A stretch of 64,000 nt of DNA, taken from IMG/VR virus record IMGVR_UViG_3300006173_000003, positions 9,439-73,438 of that record, one strand, 5' to 3'. Below are positions 1,495-62,505 of the stretch, in pieces (position 1 is the stretch's first letter; each line of letters starts with the position of its first letter). The notes under the pieces were generated by a model, which saw only the letters and a program-made list of their open reading frames with translations, made no database searches and had not been told where the DNA came from. The translations under genes were made by a program, and so were the position numbers. The stretch comes from a virus. Its lineage: Duplodnaviria; Caudoviricetes.

Positions 1495-3378
1495 ATGTAC
1501 TACGACAAATTATACGATTTAGGTATAAAATTGACGCGACGGTCTGGAAACGAAAAGTGTTTTTGCCCCATTTGCCATGATGGAAGAAAGAATAAAAAAG
1601 ATCGATCACTTTCTGTAAATATCACTACCGGGGAATATAAGTGTCATAATCCAGGTTGTGATTTTAAGGGAAATGTGAGGGCTATGGAACGGAAAAGAAA
1701 CGAAAAAAAATACGAAAGGCCCCCACAAGATATTATCAAATCTATTCAACTTCAAGAAAAAGCTGAACGGTGGTTTGGTTCACGCGGAATTTCTAAAAAG
1801 ACGTTGGAGAAGTTTATGATTTTTAGCAGGGAAGAATATATGCCCCAAACGAGCAAAAAAGAACATTGCATTTGCTTTCCTTATTTTCGAGATGGAAGTC
1901 TCATAAATATAAAATTCAGAACAGGTGCCAAGCATTTTAAAATGGTCAAGGATGGAGAACTTATTCTATTCAATTTAAATACTATTGGAGATAAGAAGTT
2001 TTGCATTATTACAGAAGGTGAGATAGATTGCATGAGTTTGTATGAATCAGGTTTCGGTGCTGACCCAATACCGGATGAAACGACGGGAGAATTGACTAAC
2101 GAAAAATATAGCAAATGGTGCCAAGTTTCTGTCCCCAATGGCGCTGCAATCGGCAATCAAAAATTAGACTATCTGGATAATTGCGCCGAATGGCTAGTGA
2201 GTATTGAAGAGTTTGTTTTAGCCACGGATGGGGATGCAGCGGGCGAACAATTAAAAATGGAACTTATAAGACGTTTAGGTGTTGAAAGGTGCCGAGTTAT
2301 TTCTTATCCTATTGAAGAATGTGTTCCTCTCGACAATGGATTAAAGCGCCGATGTAAAGATATGAATGAAGTTTTAATGTATCTTGGTAAGGAAGTTGTT
2401 GTCAATGTTATAAATAATTCAGAATCCATACCTGTTGATGGCATTTACTATGTGGAAGATATATTCCCCTCGATGCTAGAGAATTTTAAAAACGGGATAC
2501 AGTTAGCCCCTAAGACATACTTTGGTGAAATGGATGATTTTTTTAGGTGGAAGAAGGGAGAAATAAACTTGATTGTGGGTCATGCAAATCATGGGAAAAC
2601 TACCTTAGTTCTTCAAATGATGCTTACAAAAAGCGTATATGATGATTGGAAATGGGCAATATTTAGCCCAGAAAATTATCCCGCCTCTGATTTTTACGAT
2701 GACCTGATTGAAATGTATATTGGTAAATGGTTAGATAAAATGACAGAGGATGAATACATAGAAGGTGCTATGTTTGTAGATAAACATATATTTTATGTTT
2801 ATCCAGACGATGGGCATGATATTCATTCCATCAATGAGAAGTTCAGATATCTTGTTCTAAAAAAAGGCATAGACGGAGTTTTGGTAGATCCGTTCAACCA
2901 GTTGGATCATGTTCAGAAACCATATCAGAGAGAGGATCAATATTTATCTGAAACACTTAAAGATGTAAAGCGGTTTGCTTTACTGAATGGAATATCTTAC
3001 AACATAGTTGCCCATCCTGTTAAGCAACAAAGGGATCAAGATAAGTCTATTCCTCCTGTAGATATGTATGACATAGCAGGAGGAGCAATGTGGGCCAACA
3101 AAACAGATAATATAATTTCATACTATAGGCCAAATCATCATACTAATAAAACAAGTCCAGAAGTTGTTGTTTATCTTCAGAAAGTAAAGAGGCGAAGGAC
3201 TGGAGGGAAGCCAGGGGAATTTAATATTAGAATGGATTGGGAAATAAAAAGATTTGTAGATCCTATAAGTAGAATACCCTTTTTAAACCCAAAGCGTATT
3301 GTTCAAACAGATGTGTCTAGGTCTGGTCGATTACCATATTTCGATGACACAAATCTTTTGGATGAGTTACCGTTTTAG
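1495..3378 (+). CDS. Primase-helicase (Twinkle/T7 gp4-like)
   Basis: N-terminal CPIC zinc finger, TOPRIM motifs TEGEID and LATDGD, Walker A GHANHGKTT, VDPFNQL, AHP motif. Confidence 0.9.
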   Translation: MYYDKLYDLGIKLTRRSGNEKCFCPICHDGRKNKKDRSLSVNITTGEYKCHNPGCDFKGNVRAMERKRNEKKYERPPQDIIKSIQLQEKAERWFGSRGISKKTLEKFMIFSREEYMPQTSKKEHCICFPYFRDGSLINIKFRTGAKHFKMVKDGELILFNLNTIGDKKFCIITEGEIDCMSLYESGFGADPIPDETTGELTNEKYSKWCQVSVPNGAAIGNQKLDYLDNCAEWLVSIEEFVLATDGDAAGEQLKMELIRRLGVERCRVISYPIEECVPLDNGLKRRCKDMNEVLMYLGKEVVVNVINNSESIPVDGIYYVEDIFPSMLENFKNGIQLAPKTYFGEMDDFFRWKKGEINLIVGHANHGKTTLVLQMMLTKSVYDDWKWAIFSPENYPASDFYDDLIEMYIGKWLDKMTEDEYIEGAMFVDKHIFYVYPDDGHDIHSINEKFRYLVLKKGIDGVLVDPFNQLDHVQKPYQREDQYLSETLKDVKRFALLNGISYNIVAHPVKQQRDQDKSIPPVDMYDIAGGAMWANKTDNIISYYRPNHHTNKTSPEVVVYLQKVKRRRTGGKPGEFNIRMDWEIKRFVDPISRIPFLNPKRIVQTDVSRSGRLPYFDDTNLLDELPF

Positions 3379-4045: not shown

Positions 4046-4405
4046 ATGAATCAGCTTTTTTTCGGTAGTATTTGCCTTACAGACTTAATCGAGTTAGCAA
4101 AGAAAAAACACTCTGCTTTTACCAAAGGGAATAACGGGAAAATTTACGCTTCGGTGAACGTATGGCTTAATGACAAGACGGATAAGTTTGGGAACATTAT
4201 GTCCGTACAAGTGAATCCGACAAAAGAAATGAAGGACTTAGAAGACAGGGTTTATATTGGTAACCTTAAGCAGTCGGATGGACCCAAGCCAATATCAGAT
4301 AAAGATGCCAATGACTTGGACGTAGACATAGACGCTCCTACGTATCAAAAACCACCTACGGATAGTGCTAATATTTCCGAACCAATTGATGATTTACCCT
4401 TTTAA
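4046..4405 (+). CDS. Single-stranded DNA-binding protein (Bacteroidota phage type)
   Basis: OB-fold-like N-terminus (GKIYASVNVWLNDKTDKFGN) with acidic tail ending DDLPF. Confidence 0.65.
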   Translation: MNQLFFGSICLTDLIELAKKKHSAFTKGNNGKIYASVNVWLNDKTDKFGNIMSVQVNPTKEMKDLEDRVYIGNLKQSDGPKPISDKDANDLDVDIDAPTYQKPPTDSANISEPIDDLPF

Positions 4406-4415
4406 AATATTCAAT

Positions 4416-4784
4416 ATGGGAAAATATCTAACAGTTGAAGAGAGGTTGAAAGTCCTCGAACTAAAAAAACAAGGGATGCAGCAAAAGAACATTGCCAAGG
4501 TAATAGGCCGGTCTCCATCTGCCGTATCTTACCTTATCAACAAAGGAGAATATTCTGTACTAAGAATGAAAGTAGATGCAGAAGTACCTCAAAAGACAAA
4601 GGACGCGGAACGACCTCCGGAGAAAGACCTGTCTTCTTTACCAGATACCGTTCTTTTCAAACACGTAAACTGGGCTATACCCATACTTATAGTCATTGTT
4701 ATTGGGGTGTCTTCATGTGCTTCAAAGAGAAAAATTCAACATGATCCACATCCAATTTTAAATATGAAAGGAAGGGTACTATGA
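4416..4784 (+). CDS. HTH DNA-binding protein with C-terminal hydrophobic segment
   Basis: LTVEERLKVLELKKQGMQQKNIAKVIGRSPSAVSYLI HTH; WAIPILIVIVIGVSSC hydrophobic stretch. Confidence 0.6.
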   Translation: MGKYLTVEERLKVLELKKQGMQQKNIAKVIGRSPSAVSYLINKGEYSVLRMKVDAEVPQKTKDAERPPEKDLSSLPDTVLFKHVNWAIPILIVIVIGVSSCASKRKIQHDPHPILNMKGRVL

Positions 4785-4954
4785 AGCTAATTATAGTTGG
4801 AGTTATATTTTTCTATTCCTGCTGTCCTTCCAGAGATCCGAAAACTGGAAAATTTTGGACAAGTGAGCATGTATGGAAGAGAATGGTAGCCAGAAACTTT
4901 AACCACTGTAAAATTTACTATGACCGATTTGATAACCCAATACCTTACAAGTAA
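4781..4954 (+). CDS. Small lipoprotein-like protein (57 aa, absent from ORF track)
   Basis: MKLIIVGVIFFYSCC; start and stop overlap both neighbours. Confidence 0.5.
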   Translation: MKLIIVGVIFFYSCCPSRDPKTGKFWTSEHVWKRMVARNFNHCKIYYDRFDNPIPYK

Positions 4955-5598
4955 TGTGGACTAATTTCTTTTCTCGGATAGTTTTGATAAATCTTCGCAG
5001 CAGGCCGGATAGACTTATAGAAAGTTCATTGGAATTAAAACGGCACAAGATACCATTTGAAGTGGTCAATGGCATAAAGAACGAAAACGGGCAGCAAGGA
5101 ATATCAGATACGTTGAGGGGGCTATTCCGGAACTCCCTTGATGCCGGACATCGTAATTTATTGGTATTCGAGGATGATGTCCAAATGGTAGTAGAACCAG
5201 AGGAATTTGAACGAGTAATGGATTTGGCCTTAATTGAACTTCCATATAACTATGATATGCTGTACCTGGGGGCTAATTTACCTAACCCCAGAAGAGTATC
5301 CGAATATTCCGCCCATTTGCTGAGAACAATTCGTGCTCTTGCTCTTCATGCTGTAGCCTATAGTCGCCGTGGAATGGAAGAAATACTTTCACTGGAACCA
5401 CGGTTGCCTATTGACCTCCAAATAGCTGAGGAGATCAACACGGCAGGAGGTTCATTCGTAACCTATCCCCTACTTTGTACTCAGAAAGAATCGTTCTCAG
5501 ATATCGAAAAGAGACCTACAAACTATGCCTGCTTCATTGAAGACCGATACAAGGAAGTAGAAAAATATTTGGGATTATCTAAAAGTTCCTTACCTTAG
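4954..5598 (+). CDS. Glycosyltransferase family 25-like
   Basis: INLRSRPDR, LLVFEDDV, YDMLYLG motifs. Confidence 0.8.
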   Translation: MWTNFFSRIVLINLRSRPDRLIESSLELKRHKIPFEVVNGIKNENGQQGISDTLRGLFRNSLDAGHRNLLVFEDDVQMVVEPEEFERVMDLALIELPYNYDMLYLGANLPNPRRVSEYSAHLLRTIRALALHAVAYSRRGMEEILSLEPRLPIDLQIAEEINTAGGSFVTYPLLCTQKESFSDIEKRPTNYACFIEDRYKEVEKYLGLSKSSLP

Positions 5599-5602
5599 CA
5601 CT

Positions 5603-5728
5603 GCTTCAGAAAACCTCAATGTAACAAATTTATCATTTTTCTTTTTTAAGATAGAGAGTTACCGCAGGTTGAATTCTTGATGTTTTACGACGTTAGGTTT
5701 TCTGAAGCCCCTGCGGTAACTCTTTTTT
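5603..5728. promoter_or_regulatory. Interleaved double inverted-repeat switch (A-B-A'-B'-U tract) with an internal reverse promoter
   Basis: A GCTTCAGAAAACCT 5603-5616 / A' 5695-5708; B AGAGTTACCGCAGG 5655-5668 / B' 5710-5723; T-run follows; TAAATTTG on minus strand at 5632-5625. Confidence 0.65.
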
Positions 5729-5732
5729 ATTT

Positions 5733-6425
5733 ATGAAACTATCTCTCGCCATAACTAACTTCAATAGGTATGATCTGCTGCTTAAATCCTTTGAGCAAAT
5801 GGTGGATGATTCTAGGATTTCAGAAATAATAATTTACGACGATGCGAGTGACTGGGATGTTCAGGAGTCCCTAAGAGAATTAGTGAAGGGATTCCCCGAC
5901 AAAGTAAAACTTTTCCTTGGAGTAAAAAATGTCGGCATGAGCCGAGCAAAAAGAAACGCCATTTCGTTATGCGAAAATGAATTTGCGATTATCCTAGACT
6001 CAGACAACGTTATATCCCCGTCATATATCGATGCACTGGAAGGATTCTTCTGGGACGACGGAACGATTATGATGCCGGAGATGGCGGCTCCTAATTTTGA
6101 CTATCGGGCGTTCTCTGGCGTAACATTCGATTCAAGCAACGTGAACGAGTATTTGGATAGGCCGCTATTCGAAGCCCTACTAAATACGTCGAATTATGTA
6201 GTTCCTGTTTTGGAATATTTGAAAGTCTATCAGGAAGACAAAACAGTAAAAGAAACAGACACAGTTCACTTCGCATACCATTGGCTGAGAAATGGATACC
6301 AGTTTAAGGTAATTGAAGGACTCCGGTATGATCATCTTGTACATCCTGATAGCGGCTGGTTAAAGAACGCTTCATACAACTCAGCAAGAGGAAAACAAAC
6401 TATTGAACAAATACGGGCGCTATGA
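5733..6425 (+). CDS. Glycosyltransferase family 2 (GT-A fold)
   Basis: LAITNFNR, EIIIYDDAS, NVGMSRAKRNAI, ILDSDN (DxD) motifs. Confidence 0.85.
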   Translation: MKLSLAITNFNRYDLLLKSFEQMVDDSRISEIIIYDDASDWDVQESLRELVKGFPDKVKLFLGVKNVGMSRAKRNAISLCENEFAIILDSDNVISPSYIDALEGFFWDDGTIMMPEMAAPNFDYRAFSGVTFDSSNVNEYLDRPLFEALLNTSNYVVPVLEYLKVYQEDKTVKETDTVHFAYHWLRNGYQFKVIEGLRYDHLVHPDSGWLKNASYNSARGKQTIEQIRAL

Positions 6426-11811: not shown

Positions 11812-12486
11812 TTGGGCCAGCCAATCGACATAGTAGCTCAAAGGGCAATGGACTTGCACCTGGGAAATTTCAGATCGAACAGTGATTTTTTTGATCTGAG
11901 TGATTATGCCTACTATGTAGGCGCGGAAGTAGCCGATCTTTTCCGTCAGGAGTACATGCAAAAATACGGAGAGCTTCGGCAGGAAAAGAGCGATTCAATG
12001 GTAGAGTTCGATCCGACATGGTTAAACGAAAAAGAGTTGGATGTGGAGATAAAAGACGGTCGATACTTTGCCAAACTGGATTTCGGTTTCATGAATTTTC
12101 CATATGATGCGCAGTCTACCGGCATACAGTCAGTAATTTCCATTACACCGAACTACGGGAAGGAATTGCAGCGCGTGACGCTCAATCAGGTTTGGCAACT
12201 ACAATACATCCCAGCGACCAATGAAATATTTTTTCAGCCAGAGAAAACAAGGCTGAATATTTTCAAGTACGGAACGGCCAACACCAACAAGATAAAAGTT
12301 TTTTACATCCCGGCCATCAGTGAAGATATGGAAGTGCCAGATGGTCTTGTCGAGTTGGCAATAACGAACACCATCAGTAAGATGAAGGGACTGCTGCAAG
12401 GAAATGTGGTGAAGAAGTCCATAGACGGCAACATCAACCGGGTCATGGAAACTGAAATTGATAAAGATCAACTCAAACAACATTGA
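11812..12486 (+). CDS. Putative tail ring/adaptor protein
   Basis: TTG start; size, position and beta-rich core resemble crAss-like ring proteins (recollection, not searched). Confidence 0.45.
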   Translation: MGQPIDIVAQRAMDLHLGNFRSNSDFFDLSDYAYYVGAEVADLFRQEYMQKYGELRQEKSDSMVEFDPTWLNEKELDVEIKDGRYFAKLDFGFMNFPYDAQSTGIQSVISITPNYGKELQRVTLNQVWQLQYIPATNEIFFQPEKTRLNIFKYGTANTNKIKVFYIPAISEDMEVPDGLVELAITNTISKMKGLLQGNVVKKSIDGNINRVMETEIDKDQLKQH

Positions 12487-13622
12487 TCGATACTGAATCC
12501 ATAGCGAAGAATATAACTCTAGCCGATGGGCTGAATGAATATCTGGCCCTGCGTCAAATAGACAAGCGGAAGTACTATCCGATGTACTTAATCTCTGCTA
12601 AGCAGACATGGAAGGAAATGTTCGAGGGGACTATTTATGTGATGACCTCTGTGTGGAAGACAGTAAAGGCCGGAGATCCGTATCCATATGTTGACGTTCC
12701 CAGGGATGCGCAGCGGATTTTTTCAGTAGGTATAGAAGATCATTGTGGCGATATAAAGACGCTGTACTATAACAATAGGATGAATATCATCCCTAAACCT
12801 ACTGAAAAAAAATGCGGGTGTACTGATTGTGATTGTGGCGGGATGTGTGAAGAAGTCAATTCCACCATTCTAACTACGAAAGTCCTGTTCAATATTTCGG
12901 GGGTAGATTACGTGGAAAAAACGTACCTAAAATATTGTTCGAATGGGGATATGATCGAATATAAGGAAACGCCTGTCAAAAAGTACAACGACTTTAAAGG
13001 GGATGGGGGGGATTTTAATAATGACTACGGGTCGGACTACTCTGGAGGAAGCTCTGCTTTCCCTAACTTCACTATCGTTACTAACACGACGCAAAGAAAG
13101 ATTTGCAGCCTTCAAACGAAACCATGTGGATGCCCAGTTGACTCGTCGGAGAACGAACACATTCTTTTGGAATCCTGCGGATGCTTTCTTCCCTTCTTTG
13201 GTCGTCATAGAAAACAACATTGCGATAAGTTTCTTGCAGACACAAACACTTCGGAATACGGCTCAGTAAAAATAAGTGAATGTGGGAGTAAGATTTATTT
13301 CCAGCCGGGACACAAAAACCACCACCACCACCATAGAGACCATAAAAGGATTCCAGATTTCCTTTTGGTCATATATCAGACAGGCGGGGAGCCAAAGAAC
13401 ATTACGGAACAGGTGATGATTCCAGACGTGGCCGCATATAAGAATTGCTTATGGACCGGAATTGACTGGCAATCAAAACGGTTTAACAATAAATATCCGG
13501 CCAACGAAAAGCAGTTGGCCAAGTATCAATATAACGATGCGTCAAACGGTTTAGTAGGATACCTTAACCCGTTAAACATGGCAGACCTTGCAGATATGCA
13601 GGATTTGCCCCATAAATGGTGA
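12483..13622 (+). CDS. Putative tail ring protein with Cys- and His-rich insertions
   Basis: CGCTDCDCGGMC, CGCP, SCGC, HKNHHHHHRDH, DFNNDY motif. Confidence 0.45.
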   Translation: MIDTESIAKNITLADGLNEYLALRQIDKRKYYPMYLISAKQTWKEMFEGTIYVMTSVWKTVKAGDPYPYVDVPRDAQRIFSVGIEDHCGDIKTLYYNNRMNIIPKPTEKKCGCTDCDCGGMCEEVNSTILTTKVLFNISGVDYVEKTYLKYCSNGDMIEYKETPVKKYNDFKGDGGDFNNDYGSDYSGGSSAFPNFTIVTNTTQRKICSLQTKPCGCPVDSSENEHILLESCGCFLPFFGRHRKQHCDKFLADTNTSEYGSVKISECGSKIYFQPGHKNHHHHHRDHKRIPDFLLVIYQTGGEPKNITEQVMIPDVAAYKNCLWTGIDWQSKRFNNKYPANEKQLAKYQYNDASNGLVGYLNPLNMADLADMQDLPHKW

Positions 13623-14209
13623 TTATGGAAAACAAAACGTGGGATGAACAGATGATAGAGCAAGCAAGGGAAGATATATCCCTTTTTGGAAATCGTATGC
13701 TCAGCATCCCCGCCATTCCATCCAAAACAATGGATGAACAAATCGACGAATTGGAGGCTCTGGTTATTAAAGAAGGAAATCTCGTTGATTGTCCATTGAG
13801 GCACGTATTTACCCCCGGCCTGTACACTCGAACCATTCTCATGGAAGAGGGAGCACTGGTCACTAGCATGGTTCACAAAGAAGAGCATCAATACATCATC
13901 TCAAAAGGTACGGCCCTCGTGAAAATAGGTGATGGGGAGTGGCAGTCATTGTCAGCGCCATATGTGGGCGTAACACAAGCGGGGACACGTCGTGTTTTGT
14001 ATATCGAAAGCACCTGCATTTGGACTAGCATCCATCGTACTGACATACAGCCGATAAATGACTCGAAAGAAGCATTTGACTTGGCGGTTGATGCAGTGGA
14101 GGAAGAAATATATATCAAGAGAGAAAATCCCCTATTGGGCGGGTTTTTAAAAGGGAATAAAATAATTAAAACTATTGAAAAATGGCCGGATGGGCAAGCG
14201 CAGCAATAG
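13616..14209 (+). CDS. Cupin-fold protein preceding ejection genes
   Basis: HVFTPGLYTR...MVHKEEH..IISKG...APY.....GTRR...WTSIH pattern. Confidence 0.6.
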   Translation: MVIMENKTWDEQMIEQAREDISLFGNRMLSIPAIPSKTMDEQIDELEALVIKEGNLVDCPLRHVFTPGLYTRTILMEEGALVTSMVHKEEHQYIISKGTALVKIGDGEWQSLSAPYVGVTQAGTRRVLYIESTCIWTSIHRTDIQPINDSKEAFDLAVDAVEEEIYIKRENPLLGGFLKGNKIIKTIEKWPDGQAQQ

Positions 14210-28880: not shown

Positions 28881-28897
28881 TAAATTTGGTAGATTTG
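28869..28897 (+). promoter_or_regulatory. Bacteroidota-type promoter(s) for the tail operon
   Basis: Tandem TAAATTTG (28881-28888) and TAGATTTG (28890-28897); TTTG at 28869-28872. Confidence 0.65.
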
Positions 28898-28915: not shown

Positions 28916-31900
28916 ATGGGATTTGGGCAGAAATACATTGGCCGGAGAATCGATCTTGATAGCCATGAATCGCTGTGTGGCCCAGACGTTTGCCGCTATA
29001 TAAAAAATCTTATATATTCCATCGAAGATACCAGTACGGAAGCCGTAGGCCAAGGATCACAAACAGGGGTATATAAGCCGCTGCGAAGTAATTTTGTGTA
29101 CGTAGATGACTTCACCCTTCCGGACGGAGACAATCACCCCATAGGACGGTATAGCGTCAAAGAACTAAAGCAGGTATTTTTCTTCAACTACAATAGCAAA
29201 GGAAACCACGGAGTCTACAGGATAAATGGATCAGATCGGTCCATAGATACAGTATATGTAGGCCCAGCATTAAATTTTGTACTGAACCCGGAGAATTTTA
29301 TCCACTTTGGTGCTTGCTGGTTGGAAATAGTAAGTGTCGCAGACCCCGTAACGGGAGAGAAGGTAAACCGTACTTTTTTGTTTTTCACGAGAGGGATAGG
29401 AGATCAGTGTTTTATATCTGTGGAGGATGCCATTGCGACAAAAGGATTTAATGCCACATTGTTTCCATATTTCCAAGGTGATTATGATCCCAAGATACTT
29501 ATCAGTATGGCATCTCCAACGCCCGATGATTGCATAGAAATATCTGAAGTTCCCTTGGATCAAACATCCGTTCAATTAAGCAACAACCTCCTTTATAATA
29601 CATGGCAATTCAGGATTAGAACACTGGACGTATGGGGTAGGCCCTCTGAATATGGCATTATCTCAGATATGTACATTCCAGGGGGAGGCGGATGTATTCA
29701 AGCGTCAACAAATCTGCCCCGTTGTCTTGATCTGTCTTTTGATGCTCCGCCTCCGCATATAAACCAAATAGAGGTTGCCTATCGAAACTGTAACAATACT
29801 CAATGGTATTTGGCCGACACATTGGACTTGTATAACGGGTCTCAATTAGGAGAATGGTGGACGCGCCAACGAAATCCAAAGATAAATTACGATAGTAATA
29901 CCGGGAAAATAACCTATCGATTCTGTGCTGAACAAGGATGTGACCCGATAGGGCAAGACTTGACAAACAGAATAGAAAACCCCATTCCAAGAGTCTCTGA
30001 AGCTGTAACTAAGATCGGATCTGCTATCGCCCTATCGAATAACAAAGATGGATTCCTGCCATTTTCTCAGGATTTAAAGGATAAGTTCAAGTTTACCGTA
30101 ACTCCCGCCAGTCAGACCACAAATGCAGCCAGAAACATAGAAATATTCGTAGAAATATACAATCCATATCTTGGACAGAACGAGCCTATTTATCAAGGCA
30201 TACTCACCGGAAATACTAAGTTTTATGGGTTTGGAAGTTTTGGATTTGGTCCTTTTAATGGTGGTGTACAAAACACTATACCCGGAGGTCTTTTCGCCAA
30301 ATACAAGCAGTATTTTGTAAATCCAAACCAACAAGGATTAATAGGATATTTGGCCGGAACGGGAGCCTATGTTGTAAGTGAACAGTATGCAATGGATGTT
30401 TCCGGTAATCTGACTAAGGTCACTGATTTTTCCACATTAAAGAGGGACCCATCCAATCCCGTCCGCTGGTTTCAGAAGTTTACCTTCTCCAACCTGAGTG
30501 CCCAAACATACATCTTTCGAATTATCTCGCCGCAATCTGACCCAACAGTAGACCCAAATTATACTAAGACCAGCACTTACTTGAAGGGATCATTTAGTTT
30601 CAATATCAACAATCCTTCCAATCCTGTAAATCACAATAACACCGTAGACGATGCAAAGGAATTAGTAATAAATGTGTGCAATTCCAATTACAGCACACTG
30701 ACCGATAACAGAATGCTGGTTATCTACGATCTTACCCCAAGCTGTGCAGTTCGGGCTGGGTATGTAAAAACAACAGCGGACACTACGAAAGACCCAATAG
30801 GGATAGAATTAGCTCACATAGATAATAGCAACCCGGCAAAAATCGATAGTCATTATACAGACCATAATGGATTTTTCTTTGTTGCGTCTGACGCATCCGG
30901 TCATGGATCAACATACCACATAAGCGGATACTACAACTGTAAGTATTCTGACTTTACCGGAGGGATTGATACCGGAAGTTCAAGCGGCTTAGTGGTAAAT
31001 AACTTCTACCTCGACAATGATGTTTATCTTCCGAATTACGCTATCCAACCATGTAATTACATTTTAATAAAGGGACGGGTTTTGATATGCGGTACGGATG
31101 TTGGAGTGCCAAATGTAGGGGTCGTATTATCAAGGGGGGGGCTGGCAACAACAGACAATGACGGTAATTTTACGATTATTGCACACGATGACTGCAATGG
31201 GCCGAATGCTAATTTTATCAGTCAGTCAAAAAGAAACGACAACCTTTACTTCATAACAAGCGCCTGTTCCTTTACCGATTGTAACGGGGGGTGTATTGCG
31301 CCGATATCTGTAAGTATATCCAAATGCGTAGTCTGTTCCGATAGGACTGTGACCGTATCGGATACATCGGTCATGTTTGTATCCCTGAGAGGTCTTTTGA
31401 GCGGCGGTACATACCCGGTTGGAATAACTGGGTGGGACTGGGCAGACAGGCCAACGTTTGTTCAGGATTTGGGGAACATAACCATCCCTTCCATTTATGA
31501 GACCAAATCGTTTGCCCCATCTGTTTTGTCCCTACAGATAGATCCGTCTGCTGTATTTCCTGATGAGATCGATCACATATCGTTCTTCATAGGTGACGAA
31601 TCAAGCATAGCAGACTATGTGACATGGATAGTAGATAGCGTGGTATTCGTAGATAATACCGGACTGGAAAACGACACGGCCCCAACCCAGATAAAAATAT
31701 TTTACGCCAGCCTTATAGAGTATAACAAGCAGAACAATTACAACACGACGGTAAACTGGGCATTCCTGGCAACCGCTGCCGGAACTACAACTCAAACTCC
31801 GGTGACAACGGATAGGGTTCAGTTCTTGGTTAATGGGGATGGAACTTTCTTTGATAAGAATATCGTGTCTCTGGTAAAATACGATCAGGCGGGGCAGTAT

Positions 31901-35999: not shown

Positions 36000-36017
36000 C
36001 GAAATTAACTAAATTTG
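36000..36017. promoter_or_regulatory. Back-to-back divergent promoters (GroES-like gene and portal)
   Basis: TAATTTCG on minus (36007-36000) and TAAATTTG on plus (36010-36017). Confidence 0.6.
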
Positions 36018-38827: not shown

Positions 38828-38835
38828 TACATTTG
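38828..38835 (+). promoter_or_regulatory. -7 element for scaffold-capsid operon
   Basis: TACATTTG 20 nt upstream of ATG 38856. Confidence 0.55.
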
Positions 38836-43900: not shown

Positions 43901-43943
43901 AGACATAAAAAATTCCTCCGCTGCGAGGGTTAGTAATACCAGA

Positions 43944-43973
43944 GGGGGCAGTTCGTAAGGATTGGCCCCTTTT
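43944..43973 (+). terminator. Intrinsic terminator after head operon
   Basis: GGGGCAGT/ATTGGCCCC stem with one bulge followed by TTTT. Confidence 0.6.
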
Positions 43974-43987
43974 AAATTAAATAGGAA

Positions 43988-46129
43988 ATGATTATCAACG
44001 GGTCGCCTGATATCAGCTTATTGTCACTCCAAGCAACTTGGGATATCTCAGGAACTTTGCCTGCTATCACCCTCGTGAATCAATCCCAAGGACCCAATCT
44101 TGGCAACTTGACCACATGGTTTGTTGTATCCTCCCCTACGCAGACTCTTATTCACGAAGGATCGCAAACAACTCCGGATATTACAGGTAATTGGACAAAC
44201 TATTCTTTGACTGACTCTTGGCCCCGTCCGTTTAATCAGATAGAGTTTTCTGGTGCTCCATATTCATTGACCATTTACATAATGGACAGCATAGGGAATA
44301 TTTACAGCGATAATTATCTGGCTGTAATTTGCCGACCTTCAGGGAATACAAACCTTTCAAAAAACTTCTACGGGATATCCAATACAGACGTTCAGGTTCA
44401 ATGCCAGCAGGCGAGACTTTATTTTCAGGATCAGACAAACACGTCTTACCAGGGGCTACCTGGGACACTTGTTTCCTCTGTCCTTCGACTGGTATACCCG
44501 ATAGACGAAACGGGTAATATACCGGCCCCATTTGTTATAACCAATTTTTCATCCGCTGCGGCTCCCATAAGCTACAGTTCTGATAATTACCAGTTTCAAA
44601 CACAACTGGTATATGACTACGACTTTGGAAACGGAATTCATGTAAGGATAAGATACCAGACGATAAATCCAAAGAACGGGGTTAGTTATATCACTTTCCC
44701 GGTTCTGTGCAACATCGATTTATCTCCTCTTGTATGCGAATATGAAAAATTGGTTGATAGTATAGAAAGTGGCTCTTGTGTCAACGTACAAGATGCGGAA
44801 AGAAAGTTGATGTTGATCAATCCAAAATTTGCTATGGTGGTCATGGGATTGATGCAGCCACTTACAGGCATCGATGTTCCGGGGTTGATATCTGAGATTG
44901 AAACCATAGGAGGATTTACCTGTGACTGCTGTAATGCGCCTACTGGAATTATCCCACAAACCTCTTCCGTCATCGACGGATATTCTTTTCAGATAGTACC
45001 CGTTTGTGGGGATATAACAGGAACAGTTCAGGTGACGGGAACAAACGTTCAACTTTTACTATCGGACAAGACTTACAACTTTGTCATAAGCGGTTCGTCT
45101 CCTACTGCCGCATTTGCCATAACTCCGGCTACCGTAGGGTGCGTAAAGACTTATTCATTCAATGTCGATCTGGTTACTCTAAGTACGGATTTATTGAATA
45201 CCATAAAGACCGACGCCGGACTAGTTAACCTGTTCAACAGCATAGTAACCGGAGGATCTGCTGGACTCATAGCGGCAGACGGTAAGTGCGTGTATCAATC
45301 TTCGTCAACATTTAATTACACGTTCACCCTTTCTAATATACCGATATCGACAACATTTGCAATACTTAGTCAGCTAACAGTAGGAGCGTCCGTTCAGAGC
45401 CTTAGTTTCTCGTTCAATCTGACCAATCTTCCGGCGCTTCAATCTTATTTGAATGGCCTTGGTCTTGGAACTTTTGTGGTCACTAACCCATCGGGACAGA
45501 CCGTACAGATAGCCAGTTCCGACAACTCGAATATCCTGTCCTCTATGGTGTATGGGATATCATCTACTAATTTTATTGCTACCCAGTCTTCAAATGCGTC
45601 AGGATACACGCCAATACCGGCAAATCAGGTAATCCAATTCATCATAAACTATTTATGCGGACTTACCGATGGGCAGATAATAACCTCTCAGGATTATACC
45701 ATTTCTTTTATAGGGAATAATGGTCAACCTCAGCAAGTAGTTTTTGGTAAAGGAAGTACATTGGCCGCATTCCTTGCCGAATTAGTAAGCCTTCAGGGGC
45801 AAACAGTGCAGAATATAGGGAATAATCTATCCGTAAGCTGCGATAGTTTGAAGAACGCATTTCCTGTTTCTCAGACACCCATAACAGCGACCGATTTCTT
45901 ATACATAACGAGGGGAGGAGAATGCAGTCGAGGAAACTTTTTAGATGTGTTTAATTACATGCTTACCTCTGGAATTACAAATGCTACTACCAAGGCCGCT
46001 TTCTGTGCATTTGTATCGTCTTGTGGGGCCGGTATGACATGCGACGGATACAGCTTTTTTGACACTTTCGTGACAATATTCGACACTAGCTGTCCTAGTA
46101 TCGTCGGTATTTCGTATCAACTTAATTAG
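43988..46129 (+). CDS. Tail/fibre-associated structural protein
   Basis: 713 aa, Ser/Thr/Asn-rich beta protein with CDCC and other Cys pairs; no signal peptide. Confidence 0.5.
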   Translation: MIINGSPDISLLSLQATWDISGTLPAITLVNQSQGPNLGNLTTWFVVSSPTQTLIHEGSQTTPDITGNWTNYSLTDSWPRPFNQIEFSGAPYSLTIYIMDSIGNIYSDNYLAVICRPSGNTNLSKNFYGISNTDVQVQCQQARLYFQDQTNTSYQGLPGTLVSSVLRLVYPIDETGNIPAPFVITNFSSAAAPISYSSDNYQFQTQLVYDYDFGNGIHVRIRYQTINPKNGVSYITFPVLCNIDLSPLVCEYEKLVDSIESGSCVNVQDAERKLMLINPKFAMVVMGLMQPLTGIDVPGLISEIETIGGFTCDCCNAPTGIIPQTSSVIDGYSFQIVPVCGDITGTVQVTGTNVQLLLSDKTYNFVISGSSPTAAFAITPATVGCVKTYSFNVDLVTLSTDLLNTIKTDAGLVNLFNSIVTGGSAGLIAADGKCVYQSSSTFNYTFTLSNIPISTTFAILSQLTVGASVQSLSFSFNLTNLPALQSYLNGLGLGTFVVTNPSGQTVQIASSDNSNILSSMVYGISSTNFIATQSSNASGYTPIPANQVIQFIINYLCGLTDGQIITSQDYTISFIGNNGQPQQVVFGKGSTLAAFLAELVSLQGQTVQNIGNNLSVSCDSLKNAFPVSQTPITATDFLYITRGGECSRGNFLDVFNYMLTSGITNATTKAAFCAFVSSCGAGMTCDGYSFFDTFVTIFDTSCPSIVGISYQLN

Positions 46130-62438: not shown

Positions 62439-62465
62439 TTGAAGATAGGTTTAGTTGTTTTATAG

Positions 62466-62501
62466 GCCCCGGAAGCGTAGAAATATGCGCCGGGGTTTTT
62501 T
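62466..62501 (+). terminator. Intrinsic terminator ending the late operon
   Basis: GCCCCGG/CCGGGGT stem followed by T-run. Confidence 0.75.
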
Positions 62502-62505
62502 CATT

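Follow-up and report, generated by a model that had tools for sequence, protein, structure and literature searches.

The window analysed here is a 64,000-nucleotide stretch of phage DNA comprising bases 9439-73438 of a 73,438-bp IMG/VR virus record, and coordinates are given in the numbering of this window. The phage has all its genes on the plus strand. They begin with replication genes, one of which encodes a primase-helicase (1495-3378); downstream of these the order is a GT25-like gene (4954-5598), a 134-nt spacer, a GT2 glycosyltransferase gene, a GT11 gene, two methyltransferase genes and a GT47-like gene. The element described below occupies the spacer, and its features and immediate neighbours are as follows.

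4954-5598, plus strand: upstream gene of 214 aa with a weak GT25-like match; its TAG stop codon (5596-5598) lies 4 nt before arm A
5564-5571, plus strand: promoter-like -7 box AATATTTG, with one mismatch to TAnnTTTG, 31 nt before arm A (a lead only)
5579-5598, plus strand: possible, weak small 5' hairpin (CUAA.../...UUAG) with the stop codon in its 3' arm
5603-5616, plus strand: arm A, 5' strand of the long-range helix (putative antiterminator), from the repeat finder, covariation and the nascent-RNA fold
5619-5624, plus strand: start-stop mini-ORF (ATG TAA), 2 nt past arm A
5625-5632, minus strand: TAAATTTG, earlier taken for a reverse promoter and judged here to be a chance match
5655-5668, plus strand: arm B, 5' strand of the terminator-like helix, within the A:A' loop, from the repeat finder and covariation
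5695-5708, plus strand: arm A', 3' strand of the long-range helix, from the repeat finder and covariation
5710-5723, plus strand: arm B', 3' strand of the terminator-like helix, 1 nt past A', from the repeat finder and covariation
5723-5732, plus strand: U-rich tract TTTTTTATTT, separating the B:B' stem from the GT2 start codon, from the sequence
5733-6425, plus strand: GT2 glycosyltransferase gene (Pfam PF00535, E 1.4e-13), the first gene past the element

A/A' and B/B' are each 14-nt inverted repeats with 100% complementarity, and they follow one another in the interleaved order A, B, A', B', with the A and A' arms 78 bp apart. The sequence continues with T at 5723-5728, A at 5729 and TTT at 5730-5732, directly before the GT2 ATG at 5733. 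An earlier interpretation made from the letters of the window (the sequence-only reading) had described two perfect interleaved 14-bp pairs followed by a T-run and the GT2 start, and the coordinates are exactly as it claimed. Perfect inverted repeats of at least 14 nt with arms no more than 200 nt apart occur four times in the 73,438-bp record, two of them being A and B, where composition-matched random sequences give a chance expectation of 0.1 for the whole record. The interleaved inverted repeats are thus a real, non-chance feature. The other two perfect 14-bp repeats (12718-12731 / 12797-12810 and 44539-44552 / 44742-44755) are rich in A+T, each within a long ORF (12483-13622 and 43988-46129, respectively).

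The same architecture is found directly ahead of the GT2 start in three other contigs: L013, an 80-kb IMG/VR record with a 67% identical primase; L226, an 86-kb record with a 74% identical primase; and L109, a 6-kb metagenome contig. Conservation of the repeats in homologous loci was a check that the sequence-only reading had itself proposed. The shared layout consists of A, B, A', a 1-2 nt linker or short overlap, B', a U-run, about 8 nt and the ATG. The A'-B' linker measures 1-2 nt in three members, while the extended A' and B' arms of L226 overlap by 5 nt; the spacing from stem to ATG is about 8 nt in all four. The elements can be aligned across ~200 nt, and all are collinear and in the same orientation. 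A covariance model of the A..A' segment recovers one copy in each of the whole records G000, G001 and G002, and no further copies in ~2.1 Mb of related loci or in five more records of the clade.

The junction at which the element lies is normally a tight one. Of the 71 related loci that contain both genes, 62 show GT2 overlapping the upstream gene or no more than 4 nt away from it, which indicates that the spacer is a lineage-specific insertion into a normally coupled pair. The GT25-like/GT2 pair is itself widely conserved, mostly with an ATGA overlap, in many IMG/VR and metagenome phage contigs (e.g., L034:5369-6700). The spacer is not a decayed C-terminus of the upstream gene, as the upstream protein is full length relative to its homologues. 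Whether the element marks the entry to the glycan operon, as had been suggested, depends on the member: it precedes the first glycosyltransferase gene in L226 and L109, where the gene upstream of it is not a glycosyltransferase, but in the window and L013 the GT25-like gene comes before it. Two genes ahead of the element, a 139-aa protein with an N-terminal HTH_38 domain is encoded (4365-4784); the L013 and L226 loci lack a homologue of this protein, which is therefore unlikely to be a conserved partner.

GT2 homologues are common among phage contigs, the closest relatives by identity being P0001 (98%), P0002 (86%) and P0003-P0009 (50-63%). Two members of the same phage clade, L202 and G005, carry GT2 without the element, one of them with an overlapping gene pair, and in the GT2 tree the element-bearing genes do not form one clade. 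From these comparisons, the element seems to be tied to the junction before GT2 in a phage lineage rather than to one GT2 subtype. The phage GenBank collection contained no match, a single-protein scan of IMG/VR likewise gave no hits, and a search for the exact A'-B' junction pattern gave no match. The B...B' plus U-run pattern retrieved only the L013 contig from IMG/VR, and in species-representative genomes it gave 32 matches, about the number expected by chance by our own estimate and none of them element-like. The pattern of the L226/L109 type matched only the contig of L226 itself. Rfam families gave only chance-level matches (E above 4).

Substitutions between the members point to maintenance of both pairings. 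In a plain MAFFT alignment of the four sequences, 8 of the 14 pairs of the A:A' helix are altered on both sides; its covariation score of 0.405 compares with 0.215 +/- 0.06 for shuffled alignments, was reached by none of 500 shuffles, and exceeds the slid controls (0.143 or less). For B:B', tested on the plain MAFFT alignment with the structure taken from RNAalifold on that same alignment, 7 of 12 pairs are altered on both sides and 91% of cells are paired across the four sequences. Its score of 0.639 compares with 0.351 +/- 0.08 for shuffles, was again reached by 0 of 500, and exceeds the best slid control (0.278). With n = 4 sequences, the compensatory changes are indicative rather than conclusive as evidence that both helices are kept, and base-pair conservation by itself fits either an RNA helix or DNA inverted repeats that evolve in concert.

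Predicted RNA folding separates the two helices in time and in stability. When the RNA is cut before B', the minimum-energy fold contains A:A' in all four members, whereas for the full-length leader the minimum-energy fold contains B:B' in three of four, the two folds of L109 lying within 0.6 kcal/mol of each other. The best fold with A:A' has a predicted energy of -41.7 kcal/mol in the window and -45.1 kcal/mol in L013, compared to -44.5 and -46.5 kcal/mol for the best fold with B:B', and as isolated duplexes B:B' is the stronger by 1-4 kcal/mol in every member. A:A' and B:B' have no nucleotides in common in three of four members; the 5-nt overlap in L226 excludes their full co-existence there. 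As modelled, the contest between an early, weaker helix and a later, stronger one with a U-tract is what characterises a kinetic attenuator. A comparison of folding energies between the sense and antisense strands gave no consistent preference for the sense strand. In the window, the A:A' fold adds a 5-bp pairing of 5590-5594 with 5715-5719, inside B', which is not reproduced in L013. A hairpin of 4-5 bp is predicted at about the same place as the small 5' hairpin of the window in L013, L226 and L109, with its register shifted by one alignment column.

The B:B' helix comprises 14-16 pairs with a duplex energy of -25.2 kcal/mol, followed by UUUUUAUUU, and so has the stem and immediate U-tract of an intrinsic terminator. 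It is not a compact hairpin, as its loop measures 41 nt and is partly self-paired, and it was not called by a consensus scan restricted to loops of 3-8 nt. The equivalent of the U-rich tract is present in L013 and L109 and is weaker in L226, where the run has just four U and starts 4 nt past the stem. Elsewhere in the phage, ordinary G+C-rich short-loop hairpins with T-runs close gene blocks at ~43940-43975 and 62464-62502, indicating that this phage uses canonical intrinsic terminators.

From these data, we propose that the element is not a piece of flippable DNA but a leader in the RNA ahead of the sugar-transfer genes, alternating between a fold that permits read-through and a terminator fold, and we put the probability of this reading at about 0.65. 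The spacer (5599-5732), probably together with ~30 nt of the end of the preceding gene, would form a cis-acting leader with two folds, controlling whether GT2 and the genes that follow are expressed. During transcription, A would pair with A', closing a loop around B, and this helix is expected to form first because A' emerges before B'. Since A:A' abuts B' at a distance of 1 nt, B:B' would then be possible only as a 14-bp pseudoknot; on topological grounds, we argue that such a pseudoknot, longer than one helical turn and joined by a 1-nt linker, would be hindered once A:A' has closed. With B:B' hindered, the polymerase would read through and the U-rich start region would stay open. If A were instead kept unavailable, the more stable B:B' hairpin would form; given its immediate U-tract and its end ~8 nt from the ATG, the expected outcome is termination of transcription, masking of the start site, or both. 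In Bacteroidota, the structure of the mRNA, and not Shine-Dalgarno pairing, tunes initiation (PMC6847099); a hairpin whose end lies 8 nt from the ATG could thus affect translation too. We infer that RNA rather than DNA is the working form, that B:B' terminates, and what would control A. A:A' as antiterminator against B:B' as terminator had been offered in the sequence-only reading as an RNA-level alternative to its main claim, and covariation, near-isoenergetic folds and folding order speak for that alternative; the antisense RNA from a reverse promoter with which it was coupled finds no support.

The leading candidate for control of A is a ribosome, positioned either at the stop codon 4 nt upstream or at the mini-ORF 2 nt downstream; at either site it would cover A and favor B:B'. 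The element would then be a ribosome-sensing attenuator of new design, in which a ribosome beside arm A decides between the helices and exclusion operates solely through pseudoknot order. We regard this more specific proposal as tentative and, on balance, unlikely to hold in full. The candidate sensor features near A vary, and none is universal among the four members. The distance from the upstream stop codon to arm A is 4 nt in the window and L013, 13 nt in L109 and ~30 nt in L226. An ATG lies 2-3 nt past arm A in three of four members; L013 has no mini-ORF at that position and carries an 11-bp hairpin instead. The element showed no recognisable codon-rich leader peptide, binding-protein motif or ligand pocket.

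Other short reading frames adjoin the arms. Read by eye, L226 and L109 have 8-codon ORFs (MKINNFKV and MKLNNFYS, respectively) that start 2-3 nt past A and stop 7-8 nt before B; the L226 ORF lies at ~13970-14000, and the starts of ~13968 in L226 and ~1025 in L109 are approximate values, not computed ones. These two ORFs differ by offsetting indels, with the frame kept. In the window, an 18-codon upstream ORF (5680-5736) spans A' and B', and its TGA overlaps the GT2 ATG (ATGA). Its L013 counterpart is weak, TTG-started and 10 codons long, in the same frame.

A further candidate input is the promoter-like box ahead of the element. The -7 consensus of Bacteroidota is TAnnTTTG (PMC7366714), and a box at this position aligns in all four members, as an exact TAAATTTG in L013 and L109, as TAAATTTTG in L226 and as AATATTTG in the window. 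A promoter-like box upstream of a terminator-like hairpin implies regulated read-through. Matches to the consensus are also found at 28881-28888, 36010-36017 and 38828-38835, 18-28 nt before the starts of three large genes of the structural region, and are likely to be real host-type promoters of the phage. The sequence-only reading had noted that the 8-mer TAAATTTG also precedes the tail and portal genes, and copies of it are indeed present 18-28 nt upstream of the genes that start at 28916 and 36035.

That same 8-mer figured in a reading at the level of DNA, in which a recombinase would flip A..A', thereby removing the B/B' hairpin and turning a promoter within the segment of the window towards GT2; the promoter was taken to be invertible and currently OFF. 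Perfect A/A' inverted repeats do flank a 78-bp segment, a TAnnTTTG match does lie on the minus strand inside it, and concerted evolution of the arms is likewise expected of recombination sites. TAAATTTG is indeed present at 5632-5625, but its role as a reverse promoter is not borne out, as the motif occurs at chance frequency and is not conserved. The plus strand carries 6 copies and the gene-free minus strand 4, and TAnnTTTG occurs 39 and 44 times on the two strands against ~32 per strand expected by a hand estimate from base composition; at such chance-level counts, its presence in the spacer is uninformative. Within A..A', the consensus is absent from both strands of L226 and L109 and occurs once in L013, at a different, non-homologous place. 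A segment of 78 bp is also short for inversion. The sequence-only reading saw no invertase in the window, and none is found in the whole record or in two related records either: tyrosine and serine recombinases (PF00589, Phage_integrase; PF00239, Resolvase) are absent from the three element-bearing records G000, G001 and G002 (73-86 kb), which are an estimated 68-72% complete, a host enzyme being possible. All four homologues are collinear, and a DNA switch would have no use for the energy balance, the U-tract or the constant spacing to the ATG. With no recombinase found in these records, a chance-level motif and a single orientation among the homologues, the invertible promoter is unsupported, and we consider a DNA inverton highly improbable.

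The remaining alternatives accept the pairing and dispute what it does. The element could be static and never switch, being either a terminator of partial, constitutive action or a structure for stabilisation or processing, with the long-range helix as an accessory. Intercistronic hairpins are frequent in phage operons, B:B' with its U-tract is the minimum-energy fold of the full RNA, and no sensor was identified, all of which would suit such a structure; yet competition is the easier explanation for a second, near-equal helix that is the earlier to form, lies against the terminator arm and shows covariation across the four phages, and the promoter-like box upstream of the terminator points to regulation. 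A static element is in our view distinctly unlikely. Still harder to accommodate is a large coaxial pseudoknot in which both helices form together 8 nt before the ATG and influence GT2 translation, for instance by serving as an operator at the start site or as a standby platform for ribosomes. Its geometry has some appeal, given the short A'-B' linker in three members, the overlap of extended arms in L226, the constant stem-to-ATG spacing and loops of 38 and 26 nt, whose length suffices to span the stems by our own geometric estimate. However, stems of 14 bp exceed one helical turn, so the second helix must thread a closed loop, and the overlap in L226 is itself incompatible with two complete helices, making this very unlikely. 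Finally, the repeats may play no regulatory part and be what is left of a small DNA element, mobile or palindromic, or else ssDNA hairpins, inserted between formerly overlapping genes. An insertion relative to 62 of 71 related loci, in front of GT2 genes that do not form one clade, could be read in this way, but the element is single-copy per genome, holds a constant place relative to the GT2 start and has no more copies in related loci; the strict B-arm plus U-run pattern revealed no other copy in species-representative genomes or IMG/VR, and the compensatory changes indicate selection on pairing. Such a relic is barely credible as an explanation.

The proposed two-state leader resembles several known systems. 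Like the E. coli trp and pyrBI leaders, the B. subtilis pyr attenuators and riboswitch expression platforms, it has two alternative RNA folds, one of which is a hairpin with a U-tract just before the regulated gene. As in these terminator/antiterminator attenuators, the fold transcribed earlier is the first to form and the later one the more stable, the position is leader or intercistronic (two of the B. subtilis pyr attenuators are intercistronic), and short ORFs or stop codons adjoin the competing arm. It differs from them in pairing segments 1:3 and 2:4, an interleaved order that is unusual for an attenuator, where 2:3 competes against 3:4; in having competing helices that share no nucleotides in three of four members; in belonging to a host phylum without Shine-Dalgarno-based initiation; and in having no Rfam match. 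With the invertons of Bacteroides capsule loci and the Mu Gin/G and P1 Cin/C systems, it shares short inverted repeats, a small segment and an association with surface-glycan genes. Mu and P1 encode the invertase beside the invertible segment; the element, in contrast, is accompanied by no recombinase that was found, has no conserved internal promoter and only 78 bp between its arms, carries a second interleaved pair and a U-tract, and occurs in one orientation among its homologues.

The known cis-regulatory RNAs of Bacteroidota and their phages are few, and the element represents a small conserved family, outside Rfam, before phage genes that are likely to remodel glycans. If the ribosome-sensing version were true, a phage operon for glycan modification would have its transcription coupled to the state of translation, in a phylum without Shine-Dalgarno initiation. 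The element also offers a caution for repeat-based prediction of invertons, as RNA switches can likewise take the form of perfect inverted repeats ahead of surface-glycan genes. This gene may often have a structured start region: the closest GT2 in IMG/VR, at 50% identity, carries an unrelated hairpin of 9 bp that ends in UUUUCGUC immediately ahead of its ATG (L002:5930-6003).
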